A stretch of DNA of 64,000 nucleotides from Atopobium sp. GTDB taxonomy: Bacteria; Actinomycetota; Coriobacteriia; Coriobacteriales; Atopobiaceae. The notes beneath the pieces are model-generated. The model was not told where the DNA came from and searched no databases. It saw nothing but the letters and a program-made list of their open reading frames with translations. The stretch is from the NCBI GenBank assembly GCA_015258785.1, contig JABZHP010000001.1, forward strand, positions 6,434-70,433, read 5' to 3'. The position numbers and the translations under genes were made by a program. Position 1 is the stretch's first letter, and each line of letters starts with the position of its first letter. Below are positions 83 through 63,990 of this stretch, piece after piece.

Positions 83-116
83 GGCGAGAAGAAACGTGTA
101 GATAGATCTTCTCGCC
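83..116. repeat. Perfect 10-bp inverted repeat GGCGAGAAGA-N14-TCTTCTCGCC in pflB 3' intergenic region; member of the dispersed TTCTCGCC motif family
   Basis: Read directly: 83-92 ggcgagaaga, 107-116 tcttctcgcc. Lies between pflB stop (125) and the next start (60). Confidence 0.5.
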
Positions 117-124
117 AGGGCTTG

Positions 125-2281
125 TTATTTACGATCCTCAGCACCTTCAGCTGCGGATGGGTTTGCCTCACAGGCGCAATCAATCTTGTTCTCAATCTGA
201 ATATCAAGATTCATATCAGAGAAGTCGATGTGCTCAAGGTCAAGCTCACTGCCATGGAAGTAGACGTCAGAGCCCTTACCAAGAGCATTAGGAATGATTG
301 AGAAGGTATTGGAAATACCGTCCTGTGCGTCGTTAAATGGAAGCTTAGCAACGGAGGCTAGAGACGCAACAGCACCGTGGGTATCGCGGTGGTGCATTGG
401 GTTAGCGCCAGGAGCAAAAGGAACGCCCGCGCGGCGGCCGTCAGGGGTGTTGCCAGTAGCCTTACCATATACAACGTTTGAGGTAATGGTCAGGATAGAA
501 GTTGTTGGAACAGAATCACGGTAGGTGTGGTTCTGACGAATCATGTTCATGAAAATCTCAACGATGTCATGAGCAATGGTGTCAACGCGGTCGTCATCAT
601 TACCATACTTAGGGAAGTCGCCCTCAGTGACGTAATCGGTAACAAGGCCGGTCTCATCGCGGACAACCCTTACCTTTGCATACTTGATTGCAGAGAGGGA
701 GTCGGCAACAACAGAAAGGCCTGCGATACCTGTTGCAAACCAACGGTGAACATGCTCATCGTGCAGAGCCATCTGGATGCGCTCGTAGCTGTACTTATCG
801 TGCATGTAGTGGATTGCATTAAGAGCGTTGACATAAACGCCAGCAAGCCAGCGCATCATGTCCATATACTTGGAGAAGACATCGTCGTAATCAAGGTACT
901 CGCCCTCAACTGCACGGTACTTAGGACCAATCTGCTCGCCGGTCTTCTCGTCACGGCCACCATTGATTGCGTAAAGCAGGCATTTAGCAAGGTTGGCACG
1001 AGCACCAAAGAACTGCATCTCTTTACCAACGCGCATGGAGCTGACGCAGCAAGCAATTGCGTAGTCATCACCATGATAGACGCGCATAAGATCGTCGTTC
1101 TCGTACTGAATGGAGCTGGTGGTAATAGAGATTTTTGCGCAGTAGCGCTTAAAGCCCTCTGGAAGCTTGGTGGACCACAGAACAGTCAGGTTAGGCTCTG
1201 GGCTGGTACCCATGTTTTCAAGGGTGCGAAGCCAGCGGAAGGAGGACTTGGTAACCATAGAGCGGCCATCAACACCAATACCACCAATGGATTCAGTGAC
1301 CCACTGAGGGTCTCCAGAGAAAAGCTCATTGTATTCAGGAGTACGAGCAAACTTGACCATACGAAGCTTCATAACCAGGTGGTCAACAATCTCCTGAATC
1401 TCTGACTCAGTAAACGTACCACGAGCAAGATCGCGCTCTGCATAGATGTCCAGGAAGGTGGTGTTACGACCAATGGACATTGCAGCGCCATTCTGCTCTT
1501 TTACAGCAGCAAGGTAGCCCAGATAGAGCCACTGAACTGCCTCTTTGAAGTTCTCTGCGGGACGGCTCAAATCAAAGCCGTAAATCTCACCAAGCTGCTT
1601 AAGCTCCTTGAGAGCACGAATCTGCTCGGAGAGCTCCTCGCGATGACGAATGGTCTTCTCGTCCATGATGGTGCCGGTGCCGTTTTTCTGATTTGTCTTA
1701 TCAGTGATAAGAGCGTCAACACCATAGAGAGCAACACGACGATAATCGCCGATGATGCGGCCACGGCCATATGCGTCAGGCAGACCGGTAATGATATGGG
1801 AGTGACGGCATTTGCGCATGTCCTCGGTGTAGACATCAAAAACACCAGCGTTGTGAGTCTTGCGACGATAGGTGTAGAAGTCAACAATCTCTGGGTCAAC
1901 TTCATAACCGTAGGCCTTGCATGCAGCCATTGCCATACGAACGCCGCCGTCTACCATAAGGGCGCGCTTTAATGGCTTATCTGTTTGAAGGCCAACAATC
2001 TGCTCAAGCGGCTTATCAATGTAGCCGGCCTCGTGGGAGGTGATAGTGGAAACCTGCTTGGTATCCATATCAAGTACGCCACCATTTGCGGTCTCTTGAG
2101 CAAAGAGATCCATAACATCCGCCCAAAGCTTTGTAGTAGCCTCAGTTGGACCAGCGAGGAAGGAATCATCACCGTCATAAGGGGTGTAATTCTTCTGAAT
2201 GAAGTCTCGGACATCAACAGCTCTTTGCCAGTTACCACCGACAAAGCCGTCCCAAGCCTCCTGTGCTGGTGTTTCCTGCAT
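125..2281 (-). CDS. pflB: Formate C-acetyltransferase (pyruvate formate-lyase) lacking the C-terminal glycyl-radical motif
   Basis: 718-aa ORF. PFL N-terminus and the active-site Cys pair motif IACCVS are present. No RVSGY within the ORF. Confidence 0.9.
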
Positions 2282-2655
2282 AACACACTCCTTTTTACAC
2301 GAACAATTTATACGTCCGCGTTCATGCTGAGCGTGTTGAGTGGAGCATGGCCGCTCAGCAGTTTACAAATAGCAATCTTGAGACTAATTTTGACAGCAGG
2401 TATGTCTTTGGACAAATGACGTCAAATATTAGTTGCGACCTCTAACTTTACTCAATATGTAGTGCCAAGCAAGCGACAAATACGCAATATTTTGACAAGT
2501 TAGAAACGGTTTACATTTGCGCAGGTCAGAAATTTGCTAAAAAGAAAGCTATATAAAAATTGTTGAGAATTAGTCACATTTATTACGACAGGTGTCTATT
2601 TCTTCTCCAAATGTCCACAAAATTGTTGTTATTCTTAGCTATAGGGGAGGCTTCA

Positions 2656-3236
2656 TGGACATTGTGGCATTAGAAAAACAACGCTTGCGAGAAGAATGTC
2701 TAGCAGCAAGAGAAACTCTTTCTGAGAAAGAGAGAGTCAGACTTGATAACTGCATTACCCAGAAGCTTCTTGCATCCCCTGAATATGCAGAGGCAATTAC
2801 TGTTTTAACGTATGTTTCTGTCTCATCTGAAGTTTCTACGAGGATGTTTATTGAGCGCGCCCTATGCGATGGAAAAACGGTGGCGGTGCCTCGTTGTCTA
2901 CCTGGACATCGTTTAGAGTTTGTTGCCATTACTTCATTAGATCAGCTTGTGGCAGCTCCTTTTAATTTGCTTGAACCACCAAAAGACCTATCTGCTTTAG
3001 CAGAAGTCCAGATGAGCAACGCGATTTGTATTGTTCCAGCATTACTTGTTGATACAAAAGGATATCGCCTGGGTTATGGCGCAGGATTTTATGACCGATT
3101 CTTGTCAACGTATTCTGGCAAGAAGATCTGCCTTGCCTACCAGCAAAATTTGAGTAAGACAGAGCTTCCTCATACAGAATTTGACGTTGCCGTAGATATG
3201 GTGATAACAGAGTCAGACATACTTACGTGTGCATAA
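2656..3236 (+). CDS. 5-formyltetrahydrofolate cyclo-ligase
   Basis: GYGAGFYDR motif typical of 5-FCL. GGGGAGG RBS before ATG at 2656. The ORF track's start at 2592 looks like an upstream extension. Confidence 0.8.
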
Positions 3237-3240
3237 AAAA

Positions 3241-3277
3241 CCTGCTGCAATTTAGCATTACAGCAGGTTTGTGTTTC
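3241..3277. terminator. Rho-independent terminator between the convergent 5-FCL and aroQ genes (A-run before, T-run after)
   Basis: CCTGCTG-loop-CAGCAGG stem, then TTTGTGTTTC. AAAAAA precedes it, so it could act in both directions. Confidence 0.6.
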
Positions 3278-3302
3278 TCGCCAAGTGGTTATAAGCAACT
3301 GG

Positions 3303-4193
3303 TTATGCTTCATCTTTGAGATGAGCCGCCATCAGTTGGATTGCTTCTCTGTAGCTGTCAATTCCTTTACCAGCAACTGTAGCAAAGCATGCGTCTTTTA
3401 TATAAGAAATGTGCCTAAAGTCTTCTCTGGTAGAGATGTCAGTAAGATGTACCTCAATCATGGGAATTTGCACCGCTAGTGCCGCGTCGAGCAGGGCAAC
3501 TGAGGTGTGCGTATAGGCGGCAGGATTGATAACAATGCCATCGTAGCTGCCCAAGGCGTCCTGGATTGCATCAACTAGATCACCCTCATGGTTTGATTGA
3601 TAGCACACACAGTCAGAGAAACCTTGAGAGAGGGCTTCTTCCTTACAAGTCTCTATAAGGGTTCTGTAGTCAGCTTTTCCATAAACCTCTGGCTCACGAA
3701 TGCCCAGCATGTTGATGTTTGGGCCGTTGATTATGAGTAGGCGAGGAGCGTCGAGGTCATCCTCATAGTTGTCTTCAAAGTCGTCTGCGTCTAAGTCAGA
3801 GGCAAGACTGTCAAAGTATTCTTCGTCTTGATCAAGGGTATTTTTTTGAGTAAGCAAAGAGATTAGCTCATCCACCTCTTCGTTGTGCTGAGTGGGAAGA
3901 TCTGTTCGCTTCTCATCTAACGAACAAAAAGTCTTTTCTGGCTCACCCAAAATGTGATTAAGGGCATCATTTACTTGACGCACAAGATTAGGGCCAAAGA
4001 CTACCTCAAGTCCGTTGGCGCCTTTTCCTACAATACCAAGAACACCAGTGGCTGTGGCCAGCTGTTCATGGTCTATAAGCGTCATATCATTGATGGAAAG
4101 GCGAAGTCGCGTCATGCACACTTCGTTGTGAGTTAAGTTTTTTGAGCCGCCTATTGCATTTAGGATCTCGTGAGCAATAGCATTGCCGTCCAT
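3303..4193 (-). CDS. aroQ: Fusion protein: N-terminal PTS EIIB(Glc)-type domain, acidic linker, then type II 3-dehydroquinate dehydratase
   Basis: N-terminal GGSKNLTHNEVCMTRLRL...VVFG matches the EIIB domain, including the phospho-Cys context CxTRLR. C-terminal NGPNINMLGIREPEVYG...QSNHEG...INPAAYTHTS...HLTDISTREDFR matches type II DHQase. Likely start is the ATG at 4193 after GGGGAG; alternative starts at 4229 and 4220. Confidence 0.8.
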   Translation of the reverse strand: MDGNAIAHEILNAIGGSKNLTHNEVCMTRLRLSINDMTLIDHEQLATATGVLGIVGKGANGLEVVFGPNLVRQVNDALNHILGEPEKTFCSLDEKRTDLPTQHNEEVDELISLLTQKNTLDQDEEYFDSLASDLDADDFEDNYEDDLDAPRLLIINGPNINMLGIREPEVYGKADYRTLIETCKEEALSQGFSDCVCYQSNHEGDLVDAIQDALGSYDGIVINPAAYTHTSVALLDAALAVQIPMIEVHLTDISTREDFRHISYIKDACFATVAGKGIDSYREAIQLMAAHLKDEA

Positions 4194-4379: not shown

Positions 4380-5684
4380 TTAAAGTGTGTCGAGAAGACC
4401 CTTGGCATCTGCGTCTGGACTACAGAGACAAGAAAAGGTTACGTCAGCCCATGCTTCATAGAGCGGAATACGTACTGCAGCAAGATTCTGAACACCCATA
4501 CGTTCTGAAAGAGGTCTGCCGGCAATAGCTAGGTCTTCAAGCGGGCGCGTAAGGTAGACAAGCTTGCCGTTTTGACGGAGGAGCTGGTAGTTTGAAGGTG
4601 TAACAACTACGCCACCTCCACAAGAAATCACTGAGCCACTCATGCTAGAAATCTCTTGAATTACTTCATGTTCTAGATGCCTAAAAGCCGCTTCACCGTG
4701 TGTTTGTAGGTAGGTTGACGCTTTGCAGTGAGCTTTCTGCTTGATGAGAAAATCAGTGTCTATCCAGGGACGATTCAGGAGTTTTGCTAGAGCTTCTCCC
4801 GTAGAGGTTTTTCCAACTCCCGGCATACCAATAAGCACGATGTTTTCTTTTGAAGCATGGAGCTCACGCGAGATACTTTCTATCTGAGAGTCTGATACAT
4901 CCTGTCTCAAAAAGAGCGAGCTTGCTCTAGCTGCTTGAGCCACCAGCATTTTTAAACCATTTGCATTGAGTATTCCAAGACTTTCTGCGTCTAAAAGAAG
5001 CTGAGAGCGCAGCGGATTGTAGATAAGATCAATCACGCATTGTAGGGAAGTAAAAGCAGCGAGGCCATCTTTTGAAAGAGGAGAAACACCAGCATGTGGG
5101 AACATTCCTACTGGCGTTGCATTGACAAGAAGATCAGCGTCATAGTGGGATTGAAACTGGTCATACGTAATTGCGCAGTCTATATATGAAGAACTTTCGT
5201 GAGGGTTCCTGGAGACTCCCACAACATATGCACCGCCTTTTTTGAGTGCACAGCAAATTGCCCTGCCAGCGCCACCAAAGGCTCCTAAAACAACCACTAT
5301 CTTTTTGTTCAAGTTGACCTTGAGGCTTTTTACCAGATACTCAAAGCCATACACATCGGTGTTGTCTGCTGCTATAAAACCATTAGCATCTTTTACCAGG
5401 GTATTTGCCGCTCCCACAGCTTGCGCATCCTCAGAAACTGAGTCCGCAAGAGCGTAGGCATCCTTTTTGTAGGGGATAGTAACGTTCAAGCCCTGCCAAG
5501 GTTGGTCTTTGAGAAAACCTTTCAGCTCAGAAGCAGAAAGCTCATGAAGCTGGTAGGGAAATGACCCTAGCTTTTCATGAATTTCTGCTGACCAGCTATG
5601 AGAGAGTTTCTCGCCAATAAGCCCAAAAGGAGCAAGAGGAGCTGTAGGGTTACCTGAGGCTTGCTGTACGGTTTTAGAACTCAC
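4380..5684 (-). CDS. aroE-aroK: Bifunctional shikimate dehydrogenase (N-terminal) / shikimate kinase (C-terminal)
   Basis: N-terminal half resembles AroE (NVTIPYK, NTDVYGF). C-terminal half has the shikimate-kinase Walker A GMPGVGKTS. 434 aa. Confidence 0.85.
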   Translation of the reverse strand: MSSKTVQQASGNPTAPLAPFGLIGEKLSHSWSAEIHEKLGSFPYQLHELSASELKGFLKDQPWQGLNVTIPYKKDAYALADSVSEDAQAVGAANTLVKDANGFIAADNTDVYGFEYLVKSLKVNLNKKIVVVLGAFGGAGRAICCALKKGGAYVVGVSRNPHESSSYIDCAITYDQFQSHYDADLLVNATPVGMFPHAGVSPLSKDGLAAFTSLQCVIDLIYNPLRSQLLLDAESLGILNANGLKMLVAQAARASSLFLRQDVSDSQIESISRELHASKENIVLIGMPGVGKTSTGEALAKLLNRPWIDTDFLIKQKAHCKASTYLQTHGEAAFRHLEHEVIQEISSMSGSVISCGGGVVVTPSNYQLLRQNGKLVYLTRPLEDLAIAGRPLSERMGVQNLAAVRIPLYEAWADVTFSCLCSPDADAKGLLDTL

Positions 5685-5946
5685 GAGATGTCTCCTGAAC
5701 TGCCTTTGCAGCGTTCATCAAAACCTCAAGCAACTCTAAAGCATACGGTTCAAGTTCATTAGAAACAGTTGCTTTAACCTGTTCTCTTTTGGCATCTTCT
5801 CTTGAGAAATCAAGAACGGCGAGCTCATGCTCTTTTTTGTAAGCACCAATTTGTTTGGCAACCGTAATCCTTTGCTCAAAGAGGCCAAAGATTTGCGCAT
5901 CAATTGAATCGATTTCCTGGCGAAGCGTCTCTAATTGATTAGTCAT
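5674..5946 (-). CDS. Chorismate mutase (AroQ class, small helical type)
   Basis: 90-aa helical protein with a LRxEIDxID motif. Overlaps neighbours by 8-11 nt, so it is probably translationally coupled. Confidence 0.65.
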   Translation of the reverse strand: MTNQLETLRQEIDSIDAQIFGLFEQRITVAKQIGAYKKEHELAVLDFSREDAKREQVKATVSNELEPYALELLEVLMNAAKAVQETSREF

Positions 5947-7081
5947 TGTTATATCCGTTCTGCTCAGAGGGCCAGGAATATAAGGTGTCGAGAAGGGCTA
6001 GCGCAAAAGCACTTTCAACACAGGGAACAGCGCGCAAAACTGCAGTTACATCATGCCTGCCTCGAACAATAAGCTGCTCTGGTTCCATAGTTTGAAGGTT
6101 TACTGAGTTCTGTGGTAGACCAATGCTCGAGATAGGTTTTAATGCACATCTAAACCAGATGGGAGCGCCTGTTGAAATACCGCCCAGAATACCTCCAGCA
6201 TGATTGGTAGTTGGCATAACGAAGCCGTTACGCACTTCGTAAGCATCGTTATTTTCAGAGCCAAGGAGATTAGCAACTTCCATTCCGCTACCAAATTCTA
6301 TGGCTTTAACAGCGGGAACACCAAAGACTGCAGCAGAGATGGTATTTTCTAGTCCGTGGAAATGAGGGCATCCAATACCTGCAGGAACGCCCGTTGCTGC
6401 ACACTCGATTATGCCGCCAACGGTATTTTTCTCTGAGCGCAGCTGTGTAAGGAGTGCGCGGGTTTTCTCGCCAGCTTGAACATCGAGGAAGGGAAGCTCT
6501 TGAGGAGCAGTTTGGAGCAGCTGATCCATTTGGTAAGCAAGTAGCTTGTTGGCCTCAAGTGAGTTGTCTACGAGCTCAAGGGGAGTATCGCTGACGTCCT
6601 TTATTTTGAGAACGTGAGCGGCAATAGTTATGCCTTGAGCTTGCAAAATCTGGAGCGCTATGCCTCCTGCAATGCAGAGAGGAGCAGTGAGGCGAGCAGA
6701 AAAATGTCCTCCACCCGTTTGCTTGTACGAGTCTCCCCATTTTGCCCAGGCAGCAAAATCGGCATGTCCTGGTCGTGGGACAAGCTTTGTAGCTGCGTAA
6801 TCTTGTGGACGAACGCTTGTGTTAGGTAGCTCCGCCGTGAGCGGGGAGCCATCTAGAATGCCTTCTGCTGAAATTCCAGAGATAAACTCTGGATCATCAG
6901 TCTCTTTACGCGGGGTATCCCATGGATGCGATGGTGACCTTCTTTGAAGAAATGCTTTGAGAGCGGCTAGATCAACGGCAAAACCAGCAGGTAAACCTTC
7001 AATGGTGCAGCCGATTTTTGGAGCATGAGACTCGCCAAAAATAGATACTTTTACTGTTGTCCCAAAAGTTGAGGTCATCAT
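5939..7081 (-). CDS. aroC: Chorismate synthase
   Basis: GESHAPKIG-type N-terminus and full-length (380 aa) similarity to AroC. Confidence 0.9.
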   Translation of the reverse strand: MMTSTFGTTVKVSIFGESHAPKIGCTIEGLPAGFAVDLAALKAFLQRRSPSHPWDTPRKETDDPEFISGISAEGILDGSPLTAELPNTSVRPQDYAATKLVPRPGHADFAAWAKWGDSYKQTGGGHFSARLTAPLCIAGGIALQILQAQGITIAAHVLKIKDVSDTPLELVDNSLEANKLLAYQMDQLLQTAPQELPFLDVQAGEKTRALLTQLRSEKNTVGGIIECAATGVPAGIGCPHFHGLENTISAAVFGVPAVKAIEFGSGMEVANLLGSENNDAYEVRNGFVMPTTNHAGGILGGISTGAPIWFRCALKPISSIGLPQNSVNLQTMEPEQLIVRGRHDVTAVLRAVPCVESAFALALLDTLYSWPSEQNGYNND

Positions 7082-8362
7082 TTATGACTCCATACTGTGG
7101 CAGATGCCACCGAGCTGCTTAAAGTGCTCAAAGAAGAGCGGATACGACTTATTGATTGCCTCGGCATGGGTGATTATGACAGGACCCGTTGCATACGAAG
7201 CCAAAATAGTTGCCATCATCACCATGCGATGATCATTGCACGAGTCCACAATGCAGCTGACGGGCTGTTTTCCTCCCGTGACAATAAGCTCCGTTTGATC
7301 GTCAGAGAGCTCAACGCTCACACCAAATGCCCTAAGTACGCTGCAGATACTTTGAACGCGGTCGGACTCTTTAAGACGAAGGCGCTGAATATTGGTAAGC
7401 CTACTTGTTCCAGGGATAAACGCAGCTAATGCAGCAAGTACCGGAGCAAGATCGCACACCTCGGAGACAGAAATGGTAAACGGCCGCAGGTGATCCATCA
7501 TACAAGCTGCGCCCTTTTGCTGGCGAGAAACACGTGCGCCCACAAGCGATAACGCGGCCAAGATAGCTCTATCTCCCTGAACACTTTGCATTGAGAGCCC
7601 TGTGACCTCTACGCCTTGCCCAATTGCTCCTGCGGTAAGCCATGGCGCAGCGTTTGACCAATCTCCTTCGATTGAATAAACGCCTGGACAAACGTAGTGT
7701 TGAGGCTCAATGGTATAGGTAGCATTCTTTGCATCAAATTCAGTGGTGATGCCAAAGTCTTTCAATACGTGCTCTGTGATAGCCAGGTAGTCTTTTGAAT
7801 GGGTGGGCCCTGTAATTTGTAGTGTTGAAGATTCGTTCAACAAAGGTAATGCCAGCAAAAGTCCAGAAATAAATTGGGATGAGATATCTCCTGGTAGCTC
7901 AAATAAACCGCCAATAAGTTTGCCCGAAACTTCAAGGATCTTCTCGTCTTGCCAGCTAAAAGACATACCATGGGCAGAGAGTTCTGAGACAAGCGGCTCT
8001 AGAGGTCGAGAGAAGAGTCTTCCTTCTGCAGAAATTGTGGCGTTTACGTTTAGCACGCCCAGAAGGGGGAGTAAAAACCTGAGCGTTGTGCCAGATTCTT
8101 TGCAGTTAAGTTGCACACTTTGAGGGCGATTTTGCTCTTTTGCAGGGACAACTCTAAATCCCTGTTTAGTTCTAGCGATAGTGGTGCCTAAAGCTTTAAG
8201 ACAATCAACAGTCACTTGAATGTCCTCTGAGATGTACGGACAGGTAATGTTGGTAGTTCCGTCAGCAAATGAAGCGCAGATGAGCGCGCGATGAGCGCAT
8301 GATTTTGACGGGATGGCTACTACCGTTCCAAACAAATCATGAGGTGTTATTGAAACATCCAT
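7082..8362 (-). CDS. aroA: 3-phosphoshikimate 1-carboxyvinyltransferase (EPSP synthase)
   Basis: 426-aa ORF with EPSP synthase fold motifs. Directly abuts aroC. Confidence 0.9.
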   Translation of the reverse strand: MDVSITPHDLFGTVVAIPSKSCAHRALICASFADGTTNITCPYISEDIQVTVDCLKALGTTIARTKQGFRVVPAKEQNRPQSVQLNCKESGTTLRFLLPLLGVLNVNATISAEGRLFSRPLEPLVSELSAHGMSFSWQDEKILEVSGKLIGGLFELPGDISSQFISGLLLALPLLNESSTLQITGPTHSKDYLAITEHVLKDFGITTEFDAKNATYTIEPQHYVCPGVYSIEGDWSNAAPWLTAGAIGQGVEVTGLSMQSVQGDRAILAALSLVGARVSRQQKGAACMMDHLRPFTISVSEVCDLAPVLAALAAFIPGTSRLTNIQRLRLKESDRVQSICSVLRAFGVSVELSDDQTELIVTGGKQPVSCIVDSCNDHRMVMMATILASYATGPVIITHAEAINKSYPLFFEHFKQLGGICHSMES

Positions 8363-8464
8363 TTTTCACACGCTCCGTAACTTATTGCTTGATGTAAGAA
8401 TACCGCAGTTGAGTGTCAGAGAAGGATATGGTTAAAATTGTTTGAAGATTAAAGGAGGAAGCAA

Positions 8465-9091
8465 GTGAATAAGCCTTTTAGCGCCGTAACTCAGGTTTTA
8501 CGTGGCTATACGTACAATCAGGTTAAAGCTGTCGTTGAGGTTCTTATTGATTCTCCTGTACATAACGTTGAAGTAACCATGAACACTCCAGAAGCTGCTT
8601 CGTTAATTCAGAAGCTGTCCAGTGAATATGGTTCTGATATCAATATTGGTGCCGGTACCGTGCTTACTCTTGAAGATCTGCGGACGGCTCATAAAGCTGG
8701 TGCTACGTTTGTTTTAGCACCAACGCTGCTCTCTGAAGAGATGTTTGACTACTGCAAAGAGCATGAGATTTTGAGTGTTCCAGGAGCGTTTTCGCCAACA
8801 GAGATTGCTCATGCATTTGCTCTTGGTGCAGATATTGTCAAAGTATTCCCCGCAAATGAGGTTAGTTATGGATACGCCAAAAAGGTATGTGAGCCTTTAG
8901 GAAACTTGCCTCTTATGGCAGTTGGTGGCGTTGCAACAGACAATATTGCTGACGTATTTGCAGGTGGATATGCTTATGTAGGAACTGCTAACGGCATCTT
9001 CAACAAAAACGATATCCTAGCTGAAGATAAAACCGCTCTAAAACAGTCAGTACGTAAGCTTGCGGAAGAGTTGGAGCGTCTAGGACGTTAG
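8465..9091 (+). CDS. eda: KDPG/KHG aldolase family protein (Eda)
   Basis: GAGTVL...GATFVLAP...GAFSPTEI...GADIVKVFPA motifs of the Eda family. GTG start after an AAAGGAGGAAG RBS. Its 3' end overlaps aroB convergently by 4 nt. Confidence 0.7.
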   Translation: MNKPFSAVTQVLRGYTYNQVKAVVEVLIDSPVHNVEVTMNTPEAASLIQKLSSEYGSDINIGAGTVLTLEDLRTAHKAGATFVLAPTLLSEEMFDYCKEHEILSVPGAFSPTEIAHAFALGADIVKVFPANEVSYGYAKKVCEPLGNLPLMAVGGVATDNIADVFAGGYAYVGTANGIFNKNDILAEDKTALKQSVRKLAEELERLGR

Positions 9092-46069: not shown

Positions 46070-46099
46070 AGTACCATAATCGTGTGGTTTGGAGAAAAC

Positions 46100-49097: not shown

Positions 49098-49099
49098 CA

Positions 49100-49975: not shown

Positions 49976-49992
49976 TGTGTGATAGGTGAAAA

Positions 49993-51327: not shown

Positions 51328-51328
51328 T

Positions 51329-52497: not shown

Positions 52498-52517
52498 AAC
52501 AACCAATGGAGGTAAAA

Positions 52518-53258: not shown

Positions 53259-53313
53259 CTCTTAGCAACGGGTTAAATAATTTAGTTATTCAGTAGATTT
53301 TTGGGAGGAAAAC

Positions 53314-54186: not shown

Positions 54187-54207
54187 GACTTTTTACTTCA
54201 ATTATTT

Positions 54208-54238
54208 TGAGCCGGTTGTCTTCAACCGGCTCTTTTTT
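54208..54238 (+). terminator. Rho-independent terminator after tsf
   Basis: GAGCCGGTTG-TCTTC-AACCGGCTC followed by seven T. Confidence 0.85.
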
Positions 54239-54290
54239 TAACGCGATTCCTGCAAAACTTACGGTGTCGTTTGTTAAAATTATTACAACT

Positions 54291-55585: not shown

Positions 55586-56365
55586 GTGCAGTTTGATACA
55601 GACAAGCTCGTCCAGTATTTCTCTGACGCACCAGAAGATATCAGTCTTTCTGATATCAATTTAGAAACTATTCCGTCTCACGTTTCCATCATTATGGATG
55701 GAAACGGTAGATGGGCTACGGCTCGCGGACTTGACAGAACCGAAGGTCATAAGGCCGGTGTTCTTTCTTTGCGTGAGGCTGTTACTACAAGTGTGCGCCT
55801 TGGATTGGACGTTTTGTCGGTTTATGCGTTCTCCACAGAAAACTGGAAACGTCCTCAGCGTGAGGTTGACTTGCTCATGCGTCTGTTTGCAGAGACGCTT
55901 CTTAAAGAACTTCCACTTTTCCACCAAGAGAACGTTAAGCTGCGTTTCTTTGGTGACCTTGAGGCTTTGCCAGAGAAGACCCGTAGGACCTTCCAGCGCG
56001 GACTTGATGAGACTGCACAAAACACTGGTATGACGTTTGCGCTTGCTGTTAATTATGGCTCCCGCGCGGAGCTGACTAGGGCAGCTGTTCTTCTCGCTAA
56101 TCAAATTTCTGAGGGTGCCATATCTGCTGATTCGGTAACTCCTGCAGATTTTGAGAAGAACCTCTATACGACAGGTCTTCCTGATCCAGATCTGTTGATT
56201 CGTACGTCAGGAGAGCTGAGGCTTTCTAACTATTTGCTATGGCAGCTGGCTTACTCGGAGCTGTATGTCACGCAAACTTACTGGCCTGACTTCTCTAAGT
56301 GGGATTTTTTGCGCGCCATTAAGGACTATCAGGCTCGCGAAAGGCGATTCGGAGGAGTGAAATAG
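55586..56365 (+). CDS. uppS: Ditrans,polycis-undecaprenyl-diphosphate synthase
   Basis: HVSIIMDGNGRWA and YAFSTENWKRP motifs. GTG start. Confidence 0.9.
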   Translation: MQFDTDKLVQYFSDAPEDISLSDINLETIPSHVSIIMDGNGRWATARGLDRTEGHKAGVLSLREAVTTSVRLGLDVLSVYAFSTENWKRPQREVDLLMRLFAETLLKELPLFHQENVKLRFFGDLEALPEKTRRTFQRGLDETAQNTGMTFALAVNYGSRAELTRAAVLLANQISEGAISADSVTPADFEKNLYTTGLPDPDLLIRTSGELRLSNYLLWQLAYSELYVTQTYWPDFSKWDFLRAIKDYQARERRFGGVK

Positions 56366-57393
56366 TGGTGGACAATACGCGCGATTCCAGAAGGCCTACC
56401 TCTAGGATTCCTGCTGATGCTCAGCCTAATCCTGAAGAAACAGGTAGCGTTGGAATTGATAGACAGATTGAAAAGCTGGAGATTCGTCGCTCAATTAAAG
56501 AGCTGCAACGAGCCGCTGGTAACCTTATGGGTCAGCGAGTTCGTGGCGTTACCGAGAAGCTTTTGACAAGGACTCTGTCTGGCGTAGTTTACGCAGCTAT
56601 TGTGCTTGCTGCGCTGTTTGTTGGCAAAGAAGCCACTATTGTTTTGATTGCTGGCATGGCATGGCTCTGCTGCTCTGAGTTCTTCCATATTTGCCGTATG
56701 GGCGGACGTATGCCAAACGAGCCTCTTGGCCTTGTCTTCTCGCTTGTTTTTCCCATAATTGCGTATTTTGGTCACGTCTTTCCGCTGGTATTTTCTCTGC
56801 TTTTGATTATTCTTTGCGGACTTTGGTATGTTTTAACACCGCGAGCAAACCTTGCAGACGTGGCAGTTACGGCTTTTGGACCACTGTATACCTCGCTTTC
56901 ACTTTCAACGGTAGTGCTTCTGAGGTCCACAGAGCCTAGTTTTTCTATTCCTTGGATTACGCTTGCTGTCATGCTCTCTGTGTGGGCTAACGATTCATTT
57001 GCGTATTTGTTTGGATCAAAATTTGGCAAACATAAACTAGCGCCAAGAATTTCTCCTAATAAGAGCTGGGAAGGCTTCTTTGGTGGTCTTCTTGGATCAA
57101 TGTTGGTGTGGTTCTTGATGGCAGTTTTTGGTGCAATTGATATGAATCCACTGTTTGCGCTGCTTTTTGGCGTAACAGAAGGCATCTTCTCCGTTGTTGG
57201 AGACCTCTTTGAGTCTCGCATTAAGCGAGGAGTGGGCCTCAAGGATTCTGGTTCAATTATGCCTGGTCATGGTGGTCTACTTGATAGAACCGATTCGATG
57301 ATTTTTGGAACTATGGCGGCGTTTCTTCTCTTCCAGCTTGCCGTGCTCTTTAGCCAGGTCAAGCTACCTATTGCGCTGCCGTTTGGAGCATAG
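56365..57393 (+). CDS. cdsA: Phosphatidate cytidylyltransferase
   Basis: CdsA C-terminal signature SxxKRxxGxKDxGxxxPGHGGxxDR (SRIKRGVGLKDSGSIMPGHGGLLDR). Confidence 0.85.
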   Translation: MVDNTRDSRRPTSRIPADAQPNPEETGSVGIDRQIEKLEIRRSIKELQRAAGNLMGQRVRGVTEKLLTRTLSGVVYAAIVLAALFVGKEATIVLIAGMAWLCCSEFFHICRMGGRMPNEPLGLVFSLVFPIIAYFGHVFPLVFSLLLIILCGLWYVLTPRANLADVAVTAFGPLYTSLSLSTVVLLRSTEPSFSIPWITLAVMLSVWANDSFAYLFGSKFGKHKLAPRISPNKSWEGFFGGLLGSMLVWFLMAVFGAIDMNPLFALLFGVTEGIFSVVGDLFESRIKRGVGLKDSGSIMPGHGGLLDRTDSMIFGTMAAFLLFQLAVLFSQVKLPIALPFGA

Positions 57394-57396
57394 GTT

Positions 57397-58584
57397 TTGA
57401 GCATTTTTGAAGATACCGCGCCTCGTGCTGTAAGGCATGAGCCACTGCGTGTTGCTGTCCTTGGAGCTTCGGGTTCTGTGGGTATGCAGACGCTTGATGT
57501 ATGCCGTCATTTTCCGCAAAAGGTGGAGGTTGCAGCCCTTGCAGTGAGGTCGTCGGTTGAGTTTGCAGTGAAGGCAGCAACTGAGTTCAACTGCAAATAC
57601 GTTGCTTTTGCCGATGCAAGTGTCAAGGGCAACGCCCTTCTCGACTCACTGCCACAAGGCTGCAAAGCAAGCTTTGGTCCTGAGGCCGTTCAGGCGCTTG
57701 CTGAGCTGGATGAGGTTGACTGCGTAGTCAACGCAGTGGTGGGAGAGGCCGGCATTTACGCTGGTCTGGCCGCTGTGAAGGCTGGCAAAGTGCTGGCTTA
57801 CGCTAACAAGGAGTCAATTGTTGTTGGCGGAGACCTCCTGATGCCTCTGGTCAAGCCTGGTCAGCTCATCCCCGTTGATTCTGAGCACAGCGCCATCTTC
57901 CAGTGCCTTATTGGCGAGAACCCTGCTGATATCCAGAGGATTTGGCTCACCTGTTCTGGAGGCCCGTTCTTCGGATATTCTCGTGAGCAGCTCAAGCATG
58001 TCTCGGCCGACGACGCTTTGGCGCATCCAACCTGGAAGATGGGTGCCAAGATTACCATCGATTGCGCCACGCTCATGAATAAGGGTCTTGAGCTCATTGA
58101 AGCTCATCACCTCTTTGACACTCCAATGGATAAGCTTGAGGTGTTGGTACATCGTCAGAGTCGCATTCACTCTATGGTTGAGTTTGTTGACGGCTCTGTT
58201 AAAGCGCAGCTCGGAGCCTCTGATATGAGGCTGCCTATCCAGTTTGCGCTGAGCTATCCACATCGTTGGCCTGCAATTGCAAAGCCGGTTAAGTGGCAAG
58301 AAACCACTCCTCTCACAGGCGATTATGCTGACGAGAAGACCTTTGGATGCCTAGCTCTTGCTCGTCATGCAGGAACTGTTGGAGGAACGCTTCCTTGCAT
58401 TATGAATGCAGCTAATGAAGTTGCTAACCATGCATTTAGACGAGGAAGATGTTCATTTCTTGATATTGAGCGCATTGTTGCTGAGACTATGAATGCCTCT
58501 GAAGTTCAAAGGGTAGAAGACCTTCAACAATTGACGCTTGTAGACGCAGAGGCACGAGCTTTAGCCCGTTCTTTTGTGGGATAG
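57397..58584 (+). CDS. dxr: 1-deoxy-D-xylulose 5-phosphate reductoisomerase
   Basis: GASGSVG NADPH site, ANKESIV, and C-terminal Dxr domain. TTG start. Confidence 0.9.
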   Translation: MSIFEDTAPRAVRHEPLRVAVLGASGSVGMQTLDVCRHFPQKVEVAALAVRSSVEFAVKAATEFNCKYVAFADASVKGNALLDSLPQGCKASFGPEAVQALAELDEVDCVVNAVVGEAGIYAGLAAVKAGKVLAYANKESIVVGGDLLMPLVKPGQLIPVDSEHSAIFQCLIGENPADIQRIWLTCSGGPFFGYSREQLKHVSADDALAHPTWKMGAKITIDCATLMNKGLELIEAHHLFDTPMDKLEVLVHRQSRIHSMVEFVDGSVKAQLGASDMRLPIQFALSYPHRWPAIAKPVKWQETTPLTGDYADEKTFGCLALARHAGTVGGTLPCIMNAANEVANHAFRRGRCSFLDIERIVAETMNASEVQRVEDLQQLTLVDAEARALARSFVG

Positions 58585-58591
58585 GAATTTT

Positions 58592-59956
58592 GTGAATTTG
58601 ATAGCTATTCTTTCACCAATTTTTTGGGGACTCTTGGTCCTCTCGCTCCTTGTATTTGTTCACGAGGCTGGTCATTACGGTATGGCTCGCCTGTGTGGCG
58701 TCCGTGTAACTGAGTTTTTCTTGGGCATGCCGTTCAAGTACAAGCTTTCTCATAAGAGCAAAAAATATGGTACTGAGGTTGGCGTGACTCCACTTCTTTT
58801 TGGTGGCTATACGCGCATCTGCGGTATGGAAGGCGAGCTAGATGAGCTGCTTCCACAAGCTCTGATGAGCGTTCAAGAGGCGGGTTCACTTGAGGTTGGC
58901 GCTCTTGCAGCAAAACTTAACTGTGAGGATGAGCGCGCCTACAATCTGCTGTACACCCTTGCAGACTGGGGCTCCATTGAGCTTGTTAAAGAGTCAGATG
59001 AGCTAGCGCACACCACGTTTCAGACGCTTGCGCGAGACGCTGAGCTTCGCTGTGAGTATGATCGTGGTAACAACTTTGAGCTTGAAGGCTCTACAGCAGC
59101 AGGGGAGCCTCGTGTTCCACAGATGTCCGCTGATGATTTCTTTGCTCAAGAGAAGGCTCATACCTATGTTGGTGTAAATGTTCCCAAACGCTTGCTCATG
59201 ATCTTGGGCGGACCTCTAGTCAATATTGCGCTGGCCTTTGTGCTGGTTGTTGGCTCTTTGATGTTTGTTGGCATTCCTGCTGCTCAGAATAAGGCTCAGC
59301 TGGGCTCTGTTGAATCTGGCTCTCTTGCTGCTATTTCAGGCCTTACTGCCGGAGACACTATTCTTACCTTTAACAAGGTAGAGGTACATACCTGGGAAGA
59401 CCTTACTGCTGCTATCAAGGATGCAATGTCCAATGGAGGCAAGGATATCCCTGTCACGTATGAGCGCAATGGCATTCAACTTGAAACTACCATTAAACCT
59501 GTTTTGCGTTCTGACGATAAAATCATCGGCGTGACACCTGTCATGACCACCTATCACTTCTCGTTTATTGACGCATCAGCTGCAGCTGTATCGTATGCCG
59601 CGCAGGTTGGCCAGTTTGCACTCAGACTGCTCATCCCAACGCAGACCATGGAAGTTCTCAATCAGTCGTCTTCCGTTGTTGGAATTTCTGTAATGGCATC
59701 AGAAGCTGCTGCAGAGGGTTTCTCGACCCTTATTATGCTGGTAGCAGCCATTTCTATGTCACTTGGCTTTATGAATCTTTTACCTATTCCACCTCTTGAC
59801 GGTGGAAAGATTCTGATTGAGGTAATTCAGGTGATTATCAGAAAGCCTCTGTCTATCAAAGTTCAAAACATTTTGTCTTACATTGGACTGGCATTTTTCC
59901 TGTTTGTGTTTGTCGTTGCACTGAGAAACGATATTCTTCATTTACTTTTTAGGTAG
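58592..59956 (+). CDS. rseP: RIP site-2 metalloprotease RseP/Rip1
   Basis: HEAGHY zinc site, PDZ domain, LLPIPPLDGG motif. GTG at 58592; the in-frame TTG at 58574 is the alternative. Confidence 0.85.
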   Translation: MNLIAILSPIFWGLLVLSLLVFVHEAGHYGMARLCGVRVTEFFLGMPFKYKLSHKSKKYGTEVGVTPLLFGGYTRICGMEGELDELLPQALMSVQEAGSLEVGALAAKLNCEDERAYNLLYTLADWGSIELVKESDELAHTTFQTLARDAELRCEYDRGNNFELEGSTAAGEPRVPQMSADDFFAQEKAHTYVGVNVPKRLLMILGGPLVNIALAFVLVVGSLMFVGIPAAQNKAQLGSVESGSLAAISGLTAGDTILTFNKVEVHTWEDLTAAIKDAMSNGGKDIPVTYERNGIQLETTIKPVLRSDDKIIGVTPVMTTYHFSFIDASAAAVSYAAQVGQFALRLLIPTQTMEVLNQSSSVVGISVMASEAAAEGFSTLIMLVAAISMSLGFMNLLPIPPLDGGKILIEVIQVIIRKPLSIKVQNILSYIGLAFFLFVFVVALRNDILHLLFR

Positions 59957-59963
59957 TGATTTT

Positions 59964-61037
59964 ATGTCTGAGATTGCTCGCACAAAGACGCATCCCGTTA
60001 TGGTTGGATCTGTCCAGGTTGGCGGCGGTGCTCCCGTTTCCGTTCAGTCTATGTGCACCACTAAAACAGATGATCCAGACGCAACGCTCCTTCAGATCAA
60101 AGGGCTTGCTGAGGCAGGGTGCGAGATTATCCGTGTGGCAATTCCTGATGCAAAGGCCCTCGATGGCTTTGAAAAGATTTGCAAATACTCGCCACTTCCT
60201 GTTGTTGCCGATATTCACTTTGACTATAAGCTGGCGCTTGAAGCTGCAAAGCGAGGTGCGGCAGCTCTTCGTATTAACCCAGGAAACATTGGCTCCATGG
60301 AGCGTGTTGATGCTGTCATTGAGGCAGCTAAAGAGGCACATATTCCCATTAGAATTGGCGTTAACGCAGGCTCTCTTGCTAAAGAATTTGATACAAGACA
60401 AGATATGACCCTTGTCGAGAAACTCGTGGCGTCGTCAAAGTCATTTGTAGAGCACTTTTCTTCTCGCGGTTTTGACGACATTGTTTTGTCTGCAAAAGCT
60501 CACGATGTCCCCACTACGCTTGCGGTCTATCGTGCGCTTTCAAAAGAGCTTCCACAGATTCCTTTGCATGTAGGTGTAACAGAGGCTGGCGCGCTGAGGC
60601 AGGGAACGGTAAAGAATTCTGCCGCAGTTGGCATTCTGCTTGAGAGCGGCATTGGTGATACCATGCGCCTGTCTTTGACGGCCGACCCTGTGGAAGAGGT
60701 TCATGTAGCATGGGAGCTTCTTGCAGCCCTTGGTATGCGCCGCATTAAGCCAGAGCTGGTAAGTTGTCCTACGTGCGGCAGGTGTGGCGTTGACATGATT
60801 CCTATTGCAGAGGAAGTTACCAAGCGCCTAGATGGCGTTCGTGCTCCAATTTCTGTGGCGGTCATGGGTTGCGTTGTTAACGGACCTGGTGAGGCTAGGG
60901 GCGTTGACCTTGGCGTTGCCTGCGGTAAAGGTCAGGCAGTGTTGTTTGAAAATGGCAATCCCATTAGAAAAGTGCCTGAAGATAAGATTGTTGATGAGCT
61001 ATTCGCCGAAATTGAGAATCGTTTTGGCAAAAAATAA
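59964..61037 (+). CDS. ispG: 4-hydroxy-3-methylbut-2-en-1-yl diphosphate synthase
   Basis: GcpE family: TIM-barrel N-domain (RVAIPD...RINPGNIG) and 4Fe-4S CPTCGRC motif. Confidence 0.9.
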   Translation: MSEIARTKTHPVMVGSVQVGGGAPVSVQSMCTTKTDDPDATLLQIKGLAEAGCEIIRVAIPDAKALDGFEKICKYSPLPVVADIHFDYKLALEAAKRGAAALRINPGNIGSMERVDAVIEAAKEAHIPIRIGVNAGSLAKEFDTRQDMTLVEKLVASSKSFVEHFSSRGFDDIVLSAKAHDVPTTLAVYRALSKELPQIPLHVGVTEAGALRQGTVKNSAAVGILLESGIGDTMRLSLTADPVEEVHVAWELLAALGMRRIKPELVSCPTCGRCGVDMIPIAEEVTKRLDGVRAPISVAVMGCVVNGPGEARGVDLGVACGKGQAVLFENGNPIRKVPEDKIVDELFAEIENRFGKK

Positions 61038-61077
61038 GTAAACTATACGTATTACTTCATATTGAAAGGAAACTACC

Positions 61078-62793
61078 TTGAAGCACTGGATGCGCATGTC
61101 TTCTTTGTATGCACCAACACTCAAAGAAGACCCAGCTGAGGCTGTACTTGCAAGTCACCGCCTGCTCCTTCGTGCTGGCATGATTAGAAAGACCGCTGCT
61201 GGTCTGTACTCTTATCTGCCACTTGCATGGCGCTCTCTTTTAAAGATTGAGGCCATCATCCGCGATGAGATGGACGGTATTGGTGCTCAGGAGATTCTTG
61301 TTCCTATTATGACCCCCGCTGAGCTCTGGGAAGAGTCTGGTCGTTGGGACGTCTACGGCGACGAGCTCATGCGTATGCATGATCGCCACGATCGTCAGTT
61401 TGCTCTTGGTCCAACTCACGAGGAGACCTTTACAGACCTCATTAGAAATGAGCTTAAGAGCTATAAGCAGCTTCCTGTAACGCTCTATCAGATTCAGGAT
61501 AAGTTCCGTGACGAGCGCCGTCCACGCTTTGGTCTTATGCGTGGCCGTGAGTTCATTATGAAAGACGGTTATTCCTTCTCGGCAAATCAAGAGTCACTGC
61601 AGGAATGCTATGACCAGGAGAAGGTTGCTTACCAGAACGTTTGTGACCGTACACGTCTTAAGGCTCTGCAGGTAGTTGCTGACTCTGGTCAGATTGGTGG
61701 AGACACCTCTGTTGAGTTTATGGCTCTGGCAGAGGCTGGCGAGGCAAGCCTAGTCTATTGCGATTGCGGTTACGCTGCAGATACCGAAGCAGCTGCTGCA
61801 AAGATTAACGTAGAAGAGCGTGAGTCTGGCAAGATGTGTGAGATTCACACTCCTGGTATTGGCTCCATTGATGACGTTGCAGAGTTCCTCCACGTTTCAC
61901 CTGCAGCAACCCGCAAAGCTCTTGCGCTTGTTGACGGAAATGGCAAGCCAGTTGTGTGCTTTGTTCCAGGCACTCATGAGCTCAACGAGGTAAAAGCTGA
62001 GCATGCTTTTGGTGAGTATCACATGATGACTGATGAAGAGCTAGAAGAGTATGGTCTCATCAAGGGCTTCATTGGACCTGTTGGTCTACCTGAGGGTATC
62101 CGCGTTGTTGGAGACCTCTCTCTTGAGGATACTCAGTGGTGGCTCTGCGGTGCTAATAAGGCAGACTACCACCTTGATCACGTTGAACTTGGCCGTGACT
62201 TTGAGATTAACGAGTGGAAAGACCTTGTAACTTCTCAGGAGGGCGATATTTGTCCTGAGTGTGGACTTCCTCTGCACGCTGCTCGCGGTATTGAGGTTGG
62301 CCAGGTCTTCCAGCTTGGCACCAAGTACTCTTCAGCCCTTAACGCTACCTTCACCGATGAAAACGGTGAGGACAAGCCTCTGGTTATGGGCTGCTACGGC
62401 ATTGGTGTTTCCAGACTGCTTGCTGCTGTTGTTGAGCAATACAATGACGAGAAGGGCATCAAGTGGCCAGTCTCTGTTGCCCCTTATGAGGTTTCTGTTC
62501 TTTGCCTCTCTGACAAAGATCCAGAGATTTGGAATGCAGCGGGTTCTGTAGCTGACGCCTGTGTTGCTGCTGGTCTTGAGACGGTTGTTGATGATCGTGC
62601 AGAGCGTCCTGGTGTTAAGTTTGCAGACGCAGATCTTATTGGCTTCCCATGGCAGGTTATTGTGGGCAAGAAGGGCGTTGCAAACGGCATCGCAGAAGTC
62701 AAAGAGCGTGCTACCGGCGAGCGCTTTGAGGTTGCCCTTGATGAGGTTGCTTCTTGGTTGGCAGAGAAGATTCTTCCAGAGCGAGAGCTTTAA
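61078..62793 (+). CDS. proS: Proline--tRNA ligase
   Basis: Class II aaRS motifs and typical ProS N-terminus (LKEDPAEAVLASHRLLLRAGMIR), with editing-domain insertion. 571 aa. Confidence 0.9.
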   Translation: MKHWMRMSSLYAPTLKEDPAEAVLASHRLLLRAGMIRKTAAGLYSYLPLAWRSLLKIEAIIRDEMDGIGAQEILVPIMTPAELWEESGRWDVYGDELMRMHDRHDRQFALGPTHEETFTDLIRNELKSYKQLPVTLYQIQDKFRDERRPRFGLMRGREFIMKDGYSFSANQESLQECYDQEKVAYQNVCDRTRLKALQVVADSGQIGGDTSVEFMALAEAGEASLVYCDCGYAADTEAAAAKINVEERESGKMCEIHTPGIGSIDDVAEFLHVSPAATRKALALVDGNGKPVVCFVPGTHELNEVKAEHAFGEYHMMTDEELEEYGLIKGFIGPVGLPEGIRVVGDLSLEDTQWWLCGANKADYHLDHVELGRDFEINEWKDLVTSQEGDICPECGLPLHAARGIEVGQVFQLGTKYSSALNATFTDENGEDKPLVMGCYGIGVSRLLAAVVEQYNDEKGIKWPVSVAPYEVSVLCLSDKDPEIWNAAGSVADACVAAGLETVVDDRAERPGVKFADADLIGFPWQVIVGKKGVANGIAEVKERATGERFEVALDEVASWLAEKILPEREL

Positions 62794-63612: not shown

Positions 63613-63751
63613 TTAAGTGTTATTTAAGAGTAATCATTACTACTTGTGTACCCAGTAAAACTTATGCAAATTCGTTTTATATGCAACCAATTAGAAAATT
63701 GTCGAGAAAAACAGAGCTTTGGTTTGCTATAGTATTTCCCGCACCACGTTC

Positions 63752-63824
63752 GGGGAATTAGCTCAGCTGGGAGAGCGCATGACTGGCAGTCATGAGGTCA
63801 GGGGTTCGATCCCCCTATTCTCCA
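63752..63824 (+). tRNA. tRNA-Ala (anticodon GGC)
   Basis: Cloverleaf by hand: acceptor GGGGAAT/ATTCTCC with a G3:U70 Ala identity pair, anticodon loop CTGGCAG. CCA encoded. Confidence 0.85.
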
Positions 63825-63836
63825 CCACGCATTCTG

Positions 63837-63863
63837 GCGGCGGCATCTGTCGCCGCTTTTTTC
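63837..63863 (+). terminator. Short GC hairpin plus T-run between tRNA-Ala and tRNA-Met
   Basis: GCGGCG-loop-CGCCGC followed by TTTTTTC. Confidence 0.5.
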
Positions 63864-63867
63864 TTAC

Positions 63868-63940
63868 GGGCTCATGGCGCAACGGTTAGCGCAGGGGACT
63901 CATAATCCCTGGGTTGGGGGTTCAAATCCCTCTGGGCCCA
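63868..63940 (+). tRNA. tRNA-Met (anticodon CAU), elongator type; tRNA-Ile2 (lysidine) cannot be excluded
   Basis: Acceptor GGGCTCA/TGGGCCC. G1:C72 is paired, so it is not an initiator. Anticodon loop CTCATAA. CCA encoded. Confidence 0.8.
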
Positions 63941-63954
63941 CCAAATACACATGT

Positions 63955-63990
63955 GGCGAGAAATCCTTTGGTTTTCTCGCCATTTCTTTT
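63955..63990 (+). terminator. Terminator hairpin built from the dispersed motif: GGCGAGAAA-N9-TTTCTCGCC, then a T-rich tract
   Basis: Read directly at 63955-63963 and 63973-63981. Followed by ATTTCTTTT. Confidence 0.6.

Follow-up and report, generated by a model that had tools for sequence, protein, structure and literature searches.

Why does one short DNA word recur far more often than chance along a 64,000-nucleotide stretch of an Atopobium sp. genome (assembly GCA_015258785.1, contig JABZHP010000001.1, positions 6,434 to 70,433; hereafter the window)? An earlier inspection based on the letters and open reading frames (ORFs) of the window (the sequence-only reading) had drawn attention to the 9-mer TTTCTCGCC/GGCGAGAAA and described it as a mostly intergenic, uptake-signal-like or small repeat element. 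The window genome is Lancefieldella (Atopobium) parvula-like. Here we report that the motif is maintained at the DNA level as a free-standing word of ~13 nt, and we tentatively propose that it may be a DNA uptake signal kept by mutation together with biased uptake and recombination. We rank this mechanism as the best supported because the sequence-level properties that we tested match those of DNA uptake sequences (DUS) and uptake signal sequences (USS).

The 9-mer occurs 16 times in the window, compared to a mean of 0.65 and a maximum of 4 in 100 dinucleotide-preserving shuffles. The excess claimed by the sequence-only reading, ~13 copies against ~0.5 expected, is thus real and even stronger, the copies at 5607, 6464 and 7522 having been missed. 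All 13 positions that had been listed carry the 9-mer, although two were off by one base (correctly 23724 and 25896). Likewise, the longer identities hold: GGGTTTCTCGCC is exact at 9548, 20908, 27014 and 48865, GTGTTTCTCGCC is found at 3271 and 25893 with an extra copy at 7522, and GATCTTCTCGCC lies at 105 and at 25537 rather than 25547. The one-mismatch variant TTTCTCGCG was observed at 14085 and 26732 as reported, at 29172 instead of 29174, and additionally at 42809.

The motif is wider than a 9- or 10-mer. It spans ~13 nt with the consensus G-N-N-Y-TTCTCG-[C/A]-C-A, and its core TTCTCG is present 107 times in the window (52 copies on the plus and 55 on the minus strand). Among these copies, position -4 is G in 76/107 and position -1 is a pyrimidine in 96/107, and the core is followed by C, C and A. 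The same logo was obtained from 441 unique contexts of the window and 54 other Lancefieldella loci, the 13-mers seen most being GGGTTTCTCGCCA, GATCTTCTCGCCA and GTTTTTCTCGCCA. In an unbiased k-mer scan with a third-order Markov expectation, the top enriched 8- to 10-mers were all substrings of a single pattern (e.g., GGGTTTCTCG, 8 copies vs 0.06 expected, and TTTCTCGCCA, 13 vs 0.26). The core is sharp: between strong flanks, TTCTCG was counted 191 times and any one-base variant at most 14 times, the commonest such variant being the deamination product TTCTCA. The extended pattern G..YTTCTCG has 69 sites in the window (31 plus, 38 minus), a density of ~1 site per kb on both strands, within and between genes. 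Extrapolated from the density of the window and the sampled loci, this would amount to roughly 1,700 sites per 1.6-Mb genome.

With a corrected gene map, only 10 of the 69 extended sites are intergenic, as are 6 of the 16 9-mers and 8 of the 30 copies of the 8-mer TTCTCGCC, and the remaining 59 extended sites lie within genes. The description of the motif as mostly intergenic was therefore wrong, though the density per kb is higher between genes: the ~5.7 kb of intergenic DNA contain ~10 extended sites, whereas ~0.3 were estimated from base composition (~33-fold). The genic copies occupy all three reading frames, as had been noted, and both orientations. Coding contributes part of the raw hexamer count, since 39 of the 107 cores lie antisense in the single frame NNC-GAG-AAR. 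Under a protein-preserving null, in which synonymous codons were shuffled within each gene so that every protein and the codon usage of the gene were kept, G..YTTCTCG was found 58 times in coding DNA compared to 9.8 expected (z = 17), G..YTTCTCG[CA]C 26 times compared to 1.9, and TTCTCGCC 22 times compared to 4.8. The excesses were larger still under a codon-permutation null, with z = 17-24 over both nulls. This rejects a codon or peptide artefact as the main cause and bears out the earlier statement that codon bias does not explain the genic copies.

The GC skew is positive throughout the window, which lies on one replichore. The motif shows no replication polarity there (31 plus, 38 minus extended sites), and 157 of 338 unique sites (46%) fall on the G-rich strand when loci are oriented by GC skew; across the various motif counts, the leading-strand share is 45-49%. 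The leading/lagging check proposed by the sequence-only reading reveals no bias in the window and these loci. Transcription polarity is likewise lacking, as sense and antisense are both used. The sites are spaced more evenly than random ones, with a coefficient of variation of the gaps of 0.71-0.76 vs 0.98 for random placement (P<=0.001) and a largest gap of 1,994 bp vs 3,122 expected.

In order to define the taxonomic range, we scanned one genome per species, 185,579 species in total, for the inverted pair TGGCGAGAAA-N3-25-TTTCTCGCCA and obtained at least 119 loci. Among the matches listed, 54 loci belong to Atopobium/Lancefieldella, including L. parvula CP097092.1, and two more are motif-dense, high-GC loci (L063, from an Atopobiaceae metagenome-assembled genome (MAG), and L046). 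At orthologous loci, identity to the window is 93-96%. Exact matches to proteins of the window were found on metagenome contigs of human-associated origin, but none for the P-type ATPase protein. We masked the seeding pair and then counted, in 381 kb of DNA from other Lancefieldella, 586 TTCTCG cores vs 157 expected (~1.5 cores per kb), 113 copies of TTCTCGCC vs 10.3 expected and 71 copies of TTCTCGAC vs 6.4 expected (both 11-fold), whereas the motif words reached ~1-2-fold in control taxa.

For more distant relatives, syntenic loci around ComM homologues were tested under the protein-preserving null. G..YTTCTCGCC was found 7 times vs 0.5 expected in a lineage with 60% ComM identity (GC 52%), 6 times vs 1.3 in Olsenella profusa (GC 70%) and 7 times vs 1.1 in Thermophilibacter provencensis (GC 66%). 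Enrichment was weaker in a sister Lancefieldella (GC 43%, z ~4), marginal in Parafannyhessea (GC 61%, z <=3) and absent in the Coriobacteriales MAG L130 (GC 66%, z ~1-2). Codon usage explains much of the raw count in the high-GC relatives, in whose genera the downstream A of the motif is lost, but an excess remains after correction. Conservation in relatives, another check that had been suggested, is thus found in several Atopobiaceae genera, if patchily. Because of the enrichment in the 60%-ComM lineage, Olsenella and Thermophilibacter, the motif is a family-level feature with a patchy distribution over a 27-point GC range (43-70%).

Comparison of orthologues reveals how individual sites evolve. 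At the species level, the core was invariant in 25 of 34 strong sites (74%) compared to 36% of random hexamers (p=7e-6), and the N-N-Y positions were polymorphic in 21-26% of sites. All differences between orthologues were substitutions, mostly CpG transitions confined to single lineages, and no insertions were seen. In a comparison of 16 syntenic genes from five genomes, 38 of the 58 motif positions were unique to one lineage and only 8 were common to at least three; positions thus change between genera, but density is maintained. Sequence divergence rises with distance from the nearest site, which is the direction predicted for biased uptake, but the trend is confounded. No similarity extends beyond ~13 nt, and no repeat family containing the motif was found in the window. 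An element of the miniature inverted-repeat transposable element (MITE), repetitive extragenic palindrome (REP) or insertion sequence type is rejected on account of this limit, the genic position of most sites and the substitution-only differences, and with it the idea of a small REP-like repeat. Nor do the copies trace back to one protein motif or a single repeat family, given the excess that persists with proteins fixed and the lack of any longer repeat.

The window contains four close inverted pairs of TTCTCGCC (within 45 bp), compared to ~0.34 expected under random placement, and all four had been correctly recognised before. Pair 1 (GGCGAGAAG ... GATCTTCTCGCCA, 83..117) lies directly past the stop of pflB, a gene on the minus strand, and before a grcA-like gene; its minus-strand RNA hairpin (-20.6 kcal/mol) is not a canonical terminator because it has no T-tail. 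Pair 2 is a near-perfect palindrome, TTCTCGCCAAATTGGCGAGAA, inside yraN (UPF0102) at 47235..47259 (-19.4 kcal/mol). Pair 3 (TGGCGAGAAACCC-N-GCATTTCTCGCCA, 48864..48901, -23.2 kcal/mol) is inside comM and is kept in L001, L002 and L080; one of its arms is common to the 60%-identity ComM lineage and the other is specific to the window lineage. Pair 4 (TGGCGAGAAATCCTTTGGTTTTCTCGCCA then TTTCTTTT, 63954..63982) lies 3' of tRNA-Ala and tRNA-Met, the latter directly upstream at 63868-63943. It is predicted to form a terminator-like hairpin with an 11-bp stem (-18.4 kcal/mol), and across ~24 Lancefieldella species genomes the arms are conserved but the loop is variable. The sequence-only reading had rightly called this last pair the terminator after tRNA-Met, and some single copies do flank terminators, but the association is much weaker than it had implied, since pair 4 is the sole one of the four that looks canonical. 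Where the window has clear terminators (after rpmA, tsf, rnhB, proS and tRNA-Ala), these are GC-rich hairpins of the ordinary kind, and the motif is missing from them. Therefore, the motif is not primarily a terminator element.

What, then, maintains the motif? We infer a DNA uptake signal analogous to neisserial DUS and pasteurellacean USS. A surface-exposed DNA receptor of a competence system, possibly a pilin of a Com or Tad-type pilus or ComEA, would bind double-stranded DNA carrying the motif, and DNA of the cell itself or of close relatives would be taken up preferentially and recombined via DprA, ComM and RecA. Biased uptake and recombination would then spread motif-creating point mutations, and those that destroy it would be replaced. 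From the resulting balance of mutation and drive one would expect sites that are dense and evenly spaced, whose core is conserved, whose positions turn over between genera and which favour frames encoding common peptides; two facing copies would form hairpins, a few of which may serve as terminators. The label uptake-signal-like is apt as a statement of resemblance, in density, sharp core, strand symmetry, inverted pairs, even spacing, family conservation and origin by point mutation, but the use of the motif in terminators is far below the DUS and USS norm.

Several observations weigh against uptake. Although dprA and comM are present in the window, they form a tight unit with yraN (47086-49975, with overlapping or abutting ends), which also holds two of the four inverted pairs and has the same arrangement in all Atopobiaceae loci fetched. 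The order yraN-comM-dprA is a common actinobacterial arrangement and not evidence of competence, which confirms the caution already voiced that these genes do not demonstrate uptake. Neither comEA, comEC, pilus genes nor a receptor was found in the window. Regular expressions for the ComEA helix-hairpin-helix, prepilins, pilus ATPases and Flp, and a search for ComEC-like ORFs, gave nothing in ~0.6 Mb of sampled Atopobiaceae DNA, a small genome fraction in which such a negative is uninformative. A literature search retrieved no report of natural competence or transformation in Atopobiaceae or Coriobacteriia, nor of this motif or of uptake sequences in these groups. To our knowledge, uptake in the Gram-positive bacteria studied is not sequence-specific. 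Enrichment within the family is patchy, being weak in the sister Lancefieldella and Parafannyhessea and absent in L130, and the link to terminators is weak, with one canonical terminator among four pairs, two pairs inside genes and clear terminators without the motif. Finally, the features that support uptake show that the motif is maintained and not that uptake is the cause.

Among the alternatives, the one that survives best is that the motif is the site of an abundant sequence-specific chromosomal DNA-binding protein, either a nucleoid or segregation factor or a self-marker in defence or repair, with selection keeping ~1 site per kb. Selection on such a site would equally be expected to yield a sharp core with conserved flanks, evenly spaced and non-polar sites and maintenance across species, and gain and loss of the protein could underlie the patchy distribution. 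However, we know of no chromosomal protein with a 10-13-nt site at ~1 per kb, mostly within coding sequence; sites of Noc, SlmA, MatP and ParB number tens per genome. Furthermore, the high positional turnover at constant density suggests that density matters and location does not. We therefore regard a binding-protein site as unlikely.

Distinctly improbable, in our view, is a by-product of sequence-specific mutation or repair bias, for instance a correction resembling very short patch repair that is linked to a motif-recognising methyltransferase and converts near-matches. In its favour, biased repair is known to distort the frequencies of oligomers, a CpG lies within the motif and CpG transitions make up most of its losses; such a process would act regardless of strand and location, as seen. 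Nevertheless, known biases amount to less than ~2-fold on 4-6-nt sites, whereas the motif is 6-13-fold enriched under the codon-aware null, with 10-13-mers far higher still against the third-order Markov expectation and a specificity that spans 13 nt. Over-even spacing and an excess of inverted pairs are not predicted by such a bias, and TTCTCA, as the commonest variant, is not depleted.

An RNA-level or terminator element, in which hairpins of inverted copies act in termination or RNA stability and single copies are their decayed halves, would be in keeping with the inverted-pair excess, with the conserved terminator-like pair 4 after the tRNA genes and with the several single copies that flank terminators. 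We consider it very improbable given that ~59 of 69 sites are solitary and genic, in both orientations relative to transcription and conserved regardless of orientation, that two of four pairs lie within ORFs, that pair 1 has no T-tail and that clear terminators are free of the motif. Scarcely credible is a polar chromosome signal, that is, a Chi-like hotspot for AddAB/RecBCD or an FtsK-orienting polar sequence (KOPS), despite an over-represented core-genome oligomer at Chi- or KOPS-like density. Chi has ~75% strand skew and KOPS more; this explanation is rejected because the motif has no skew (31 plus and 38 minus sites in the window, which lies on one replichore; 46% of 338 sites assigned to the inferred leading strand), and no polar signal would work with head-to-head pairs this frequent. 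A small mobile repeat (REP, MITE or bacterial interspersed mosaic element (BIME)) or an artefact of codon usage, conserved peptides or chance has next to no chance of being right: the 39 cores in frame NNC-GAG-AAR and the codon-driven counts of high-GC relatives speak for an artefact, but nothing is similar past ~13 nt, orthologues differ by substitutions and not insertions, and the excess survives both coding nulls, in all frames and both orientations, next to ~33-fold intergenic enrichment.

The more far-reaching claim, that the motif is a genuine Atopobiaceae DNA uptake sequence and hence the first outside Proteobacteria and the first in a monoderm (Gram-positive, Actinomycetota) lineage, is possible but rather doubtful. 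If it is true, these oral, gut and vaginal commensals would be naturally transformable and would carry a so far unknown sequence-specific DNA receptor, and the uneven motif density from genus to genus would reflect where the uptake system was gained or lost. Testable questions follow: are Lancefieldella, Olsenella and their relatives capable of natural transformation, did the tagging of self-DNA arise independently in monoderms, and which receptor could operate without an outer membrane or a ComP-type pilin? As the hosts are common human commensals that are genetically hard to manipulate, adding the motif to constructs would provide a practical tool if it promotes uptake. Even without uptake, an evenly spaced 13-mer at ~1 per kb in genomes of 43-70% GC has no established explanation.

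The individual sites of the window are distributed as follows. Strong genic sites in the aro operon (span 4388..10011) are located at 4388(-), 5604(+), 5986(-), 6461(+), 7521(-), 9548(+) and 9999(-), with a weaker one at 7937(+). Further strong genic sites between 13140 and 29440 are at 13140(-), 16534(-), 17584(+), 23209(-), 23721(+), 25537(+) and 29428(+), alongside weaker G..YTTCTCG sites. A third genic series of strong sites (span 36596..62457), again with weaker ones, comprises 36596(+), 36818(+), 37128(-), 40080(-), 44704(+), 51918(+), 57634(+), 59716(+) and 60413(-).

Four solitary sites are intergenic. GTGTTTCTCGCCA (3271..3283, plus strand) adjoins a bidirectional terminator hairpin between convergent genes, and GGGTTTCTCGCCT (20907..20919, minus) lies between the pbp2 stop and the rodA start, where it overlaps the spacer between ribosome-binding site and start codon. 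GTGTTTCTCGCCG (25893..25905, plus) is upstream of rplU, at a place without a match to an Rfam leader, and GGGTTTCTCGCCA (27013..27025, minus) is located between the terminator of a putative Trp-leader attenuator and a 197-aa ORF. In addition, the intergenic site GTTTTTCTCGACA (63700..63712, minus), upstream of tRNA-Ala, is polymorphic: 10 species have the motif and 14 have TTTTTATCG. No Rfam family overlaps any motif copy in the window.

Some regions are devoid of the core. A recurrent ~3.6-kb desert without TTCTCG and of lower GC was found in L025 (1735-5394), ~1.7-5.4 kb past the 3' end of the window, and the same region in L076, L034, L012 and L061, directly downstream of tRNA-Ala, tRNA-Met and a further tRNA gene. 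Two Pro-rich surface proteins of SpaA fold are encoded here, and the desert, the one suggestive region of its kind, is probably an adhesin locus that is variable or accessory; such large gaps are, however, not very improbable. In the sister Lancefieldella with 81% ComM identity (L124), TTCTCG is lacking for 4.8 kb (9635-14430) across yraN-comM-dprA-trmFO, genes that hold several sites and two inverted pairs in the window; the motif is generally weaker in that species.

A scan of viral contigs for the motif pair returned 38 matches, about chance level. The only viral contig with host-like density was L132 (IMG/VR contig 3300026519_000003, 61% GC), with 1.5 TTCTCG per kb, 7 cores with the G..Y flank and 4 copies of TTCTCGCC; it may represent either an Olsenella-like prophage or a piece of host DNA that was classified as viral.

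Outside the Coriobacteriia, long hairpins lie between genes in MAGs of Solirubrobacterales/Thermoleophilia (~70% GC) and have the same outer arms, TGGCGAGAAA ... TTTCTCGCCA (L003, L028, L047, L059, L087, L088, L106, L037/L042/L043/L078 and others). Spacer length is constant (17-18 nt), and the spacer itself is often a palindrome. Several of the hairpins occur per genome, and they sometimes form 2-3 tandem units ~22-25 nt apart. We rejected these hairpins as instances of the same motif, as they are a clustered intergenic family whose single arms are not enriched; they look like a separate REP/BIME-like family that shares the arm sequence.

Other features of the window were noted in passing. The spacer 26679-27077 contains a ribosome-binding site and then a 20-codon ORF, MRATCTQQWWWNNLSFSGQR, with three consecutive Trp codons (26870-26985 region), followed by the strong hairpin GGCTCTCGGGTGACCGAGAGC and T8 at 26957-26985, without an Rfam match. 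Downstream lies the 197-aa ORF, which has no Pfam match, ahead of genes for the ATPase of an energy-coupling factor (ECF) transporter and EcfT. In layout, the region 26870-26985 resembles a Trp leader-peptide attenuator of a tryptophan transporter of the TrpP-like kind. Despite the CTAG inside it, the palindrome CTCTAGAG has 6 sites (7997, 22220, 23955, 40337, 45665 and 46212; ~10-fold over Markov), and CTGCAG is the commonest hexamer of the window with 70 sites; both excesses may reflect a restriction-modification system or runs of Ala, Leu and Gln codons. Ribosomal protein S16 (35388-35732) carries an Ala/Glu-rich C-terminal tail of ~30 residues encoded by GCTGCWG repeats, which dominate the direct-repeat output of the window.

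How does the motif compare with known systems? A 2025 comparative study describes uptake-enhancing sequences as a feature of Neisseriaceae and Pasteurellaceae (bioRxiv 10.1101/2025.10.24.684340), and most of the DUS and USS properties used here were taken from that study and from PMC1852404. The neisserial DUS (the 12-mer AT-DUS GCCGTCTGAA and its dialects, read by the minor pilin ComP) resembles our motif as a non-palindromic word of 10-13 nt that occurs at ~1 per kb on both strands, within and between genes and with a frame bias. In both, hairpin-forming close inverted pairs are in excess, the word is conserved across a family with sequence variants, and there is an association with core DNA, tentative for our motif. 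In the published systems, inverted pairs lie in terminators in >70-90% of cases (DUS about 75%), and about half of DUS copies are in terminators (bioRxiv 10.1101/2025.10.24.684340), whereas here one of four pairs is a terminator and most sites are genic. The motif further differs from DUS in its unrelated sequence and in its monoderm actinobacterial host, for which no competence is known and no ComP-type receptor has been identified.

With the pasteurellacean USS (Hin-type AAGTGCGGT and Apl-type ACAAGCGGT, with flanking AT tracts), the motif shares a sharp core with weaker flank preferences, ~1 site per kb, preferred frames encoding common peptides, origin by point mutation and turnover between genera. 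USS sites are also spaced over-evenly, as are those described here. The differences are an unrelated sequence, another phylum and the experimental basis of the uptake bias of USS. Because its consensus GGGTTTCTCGCCA is unrelated to GCCGTCTGAA, AAGTGCGGT and ACAAGCGGT, the motif belongs to neither the DUS nor the USS family.

Other abundant words share single traits with it. Chi and KOPS are over-represented short words of the core genome, but with a strong leading-strand skew that the motif lacks. Some copies are intergenic and hairpin-forming as in REP, BIME and MITE elements; unlike REP and MITE, which are longer, exclusively intergenic and spread as units, the motif is a mostly genic 13-mer made by substitutions. 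The cyanobacterial highly iterated palindrome HIP1 (GCGATCGC) is likewise an abundant oligomer in and between genes, maintained at the DNA level and without an established function, but it is an 8-nt palindrome, whereas the motif is asymmetric, spans ~13 nt and is used in both orientations.

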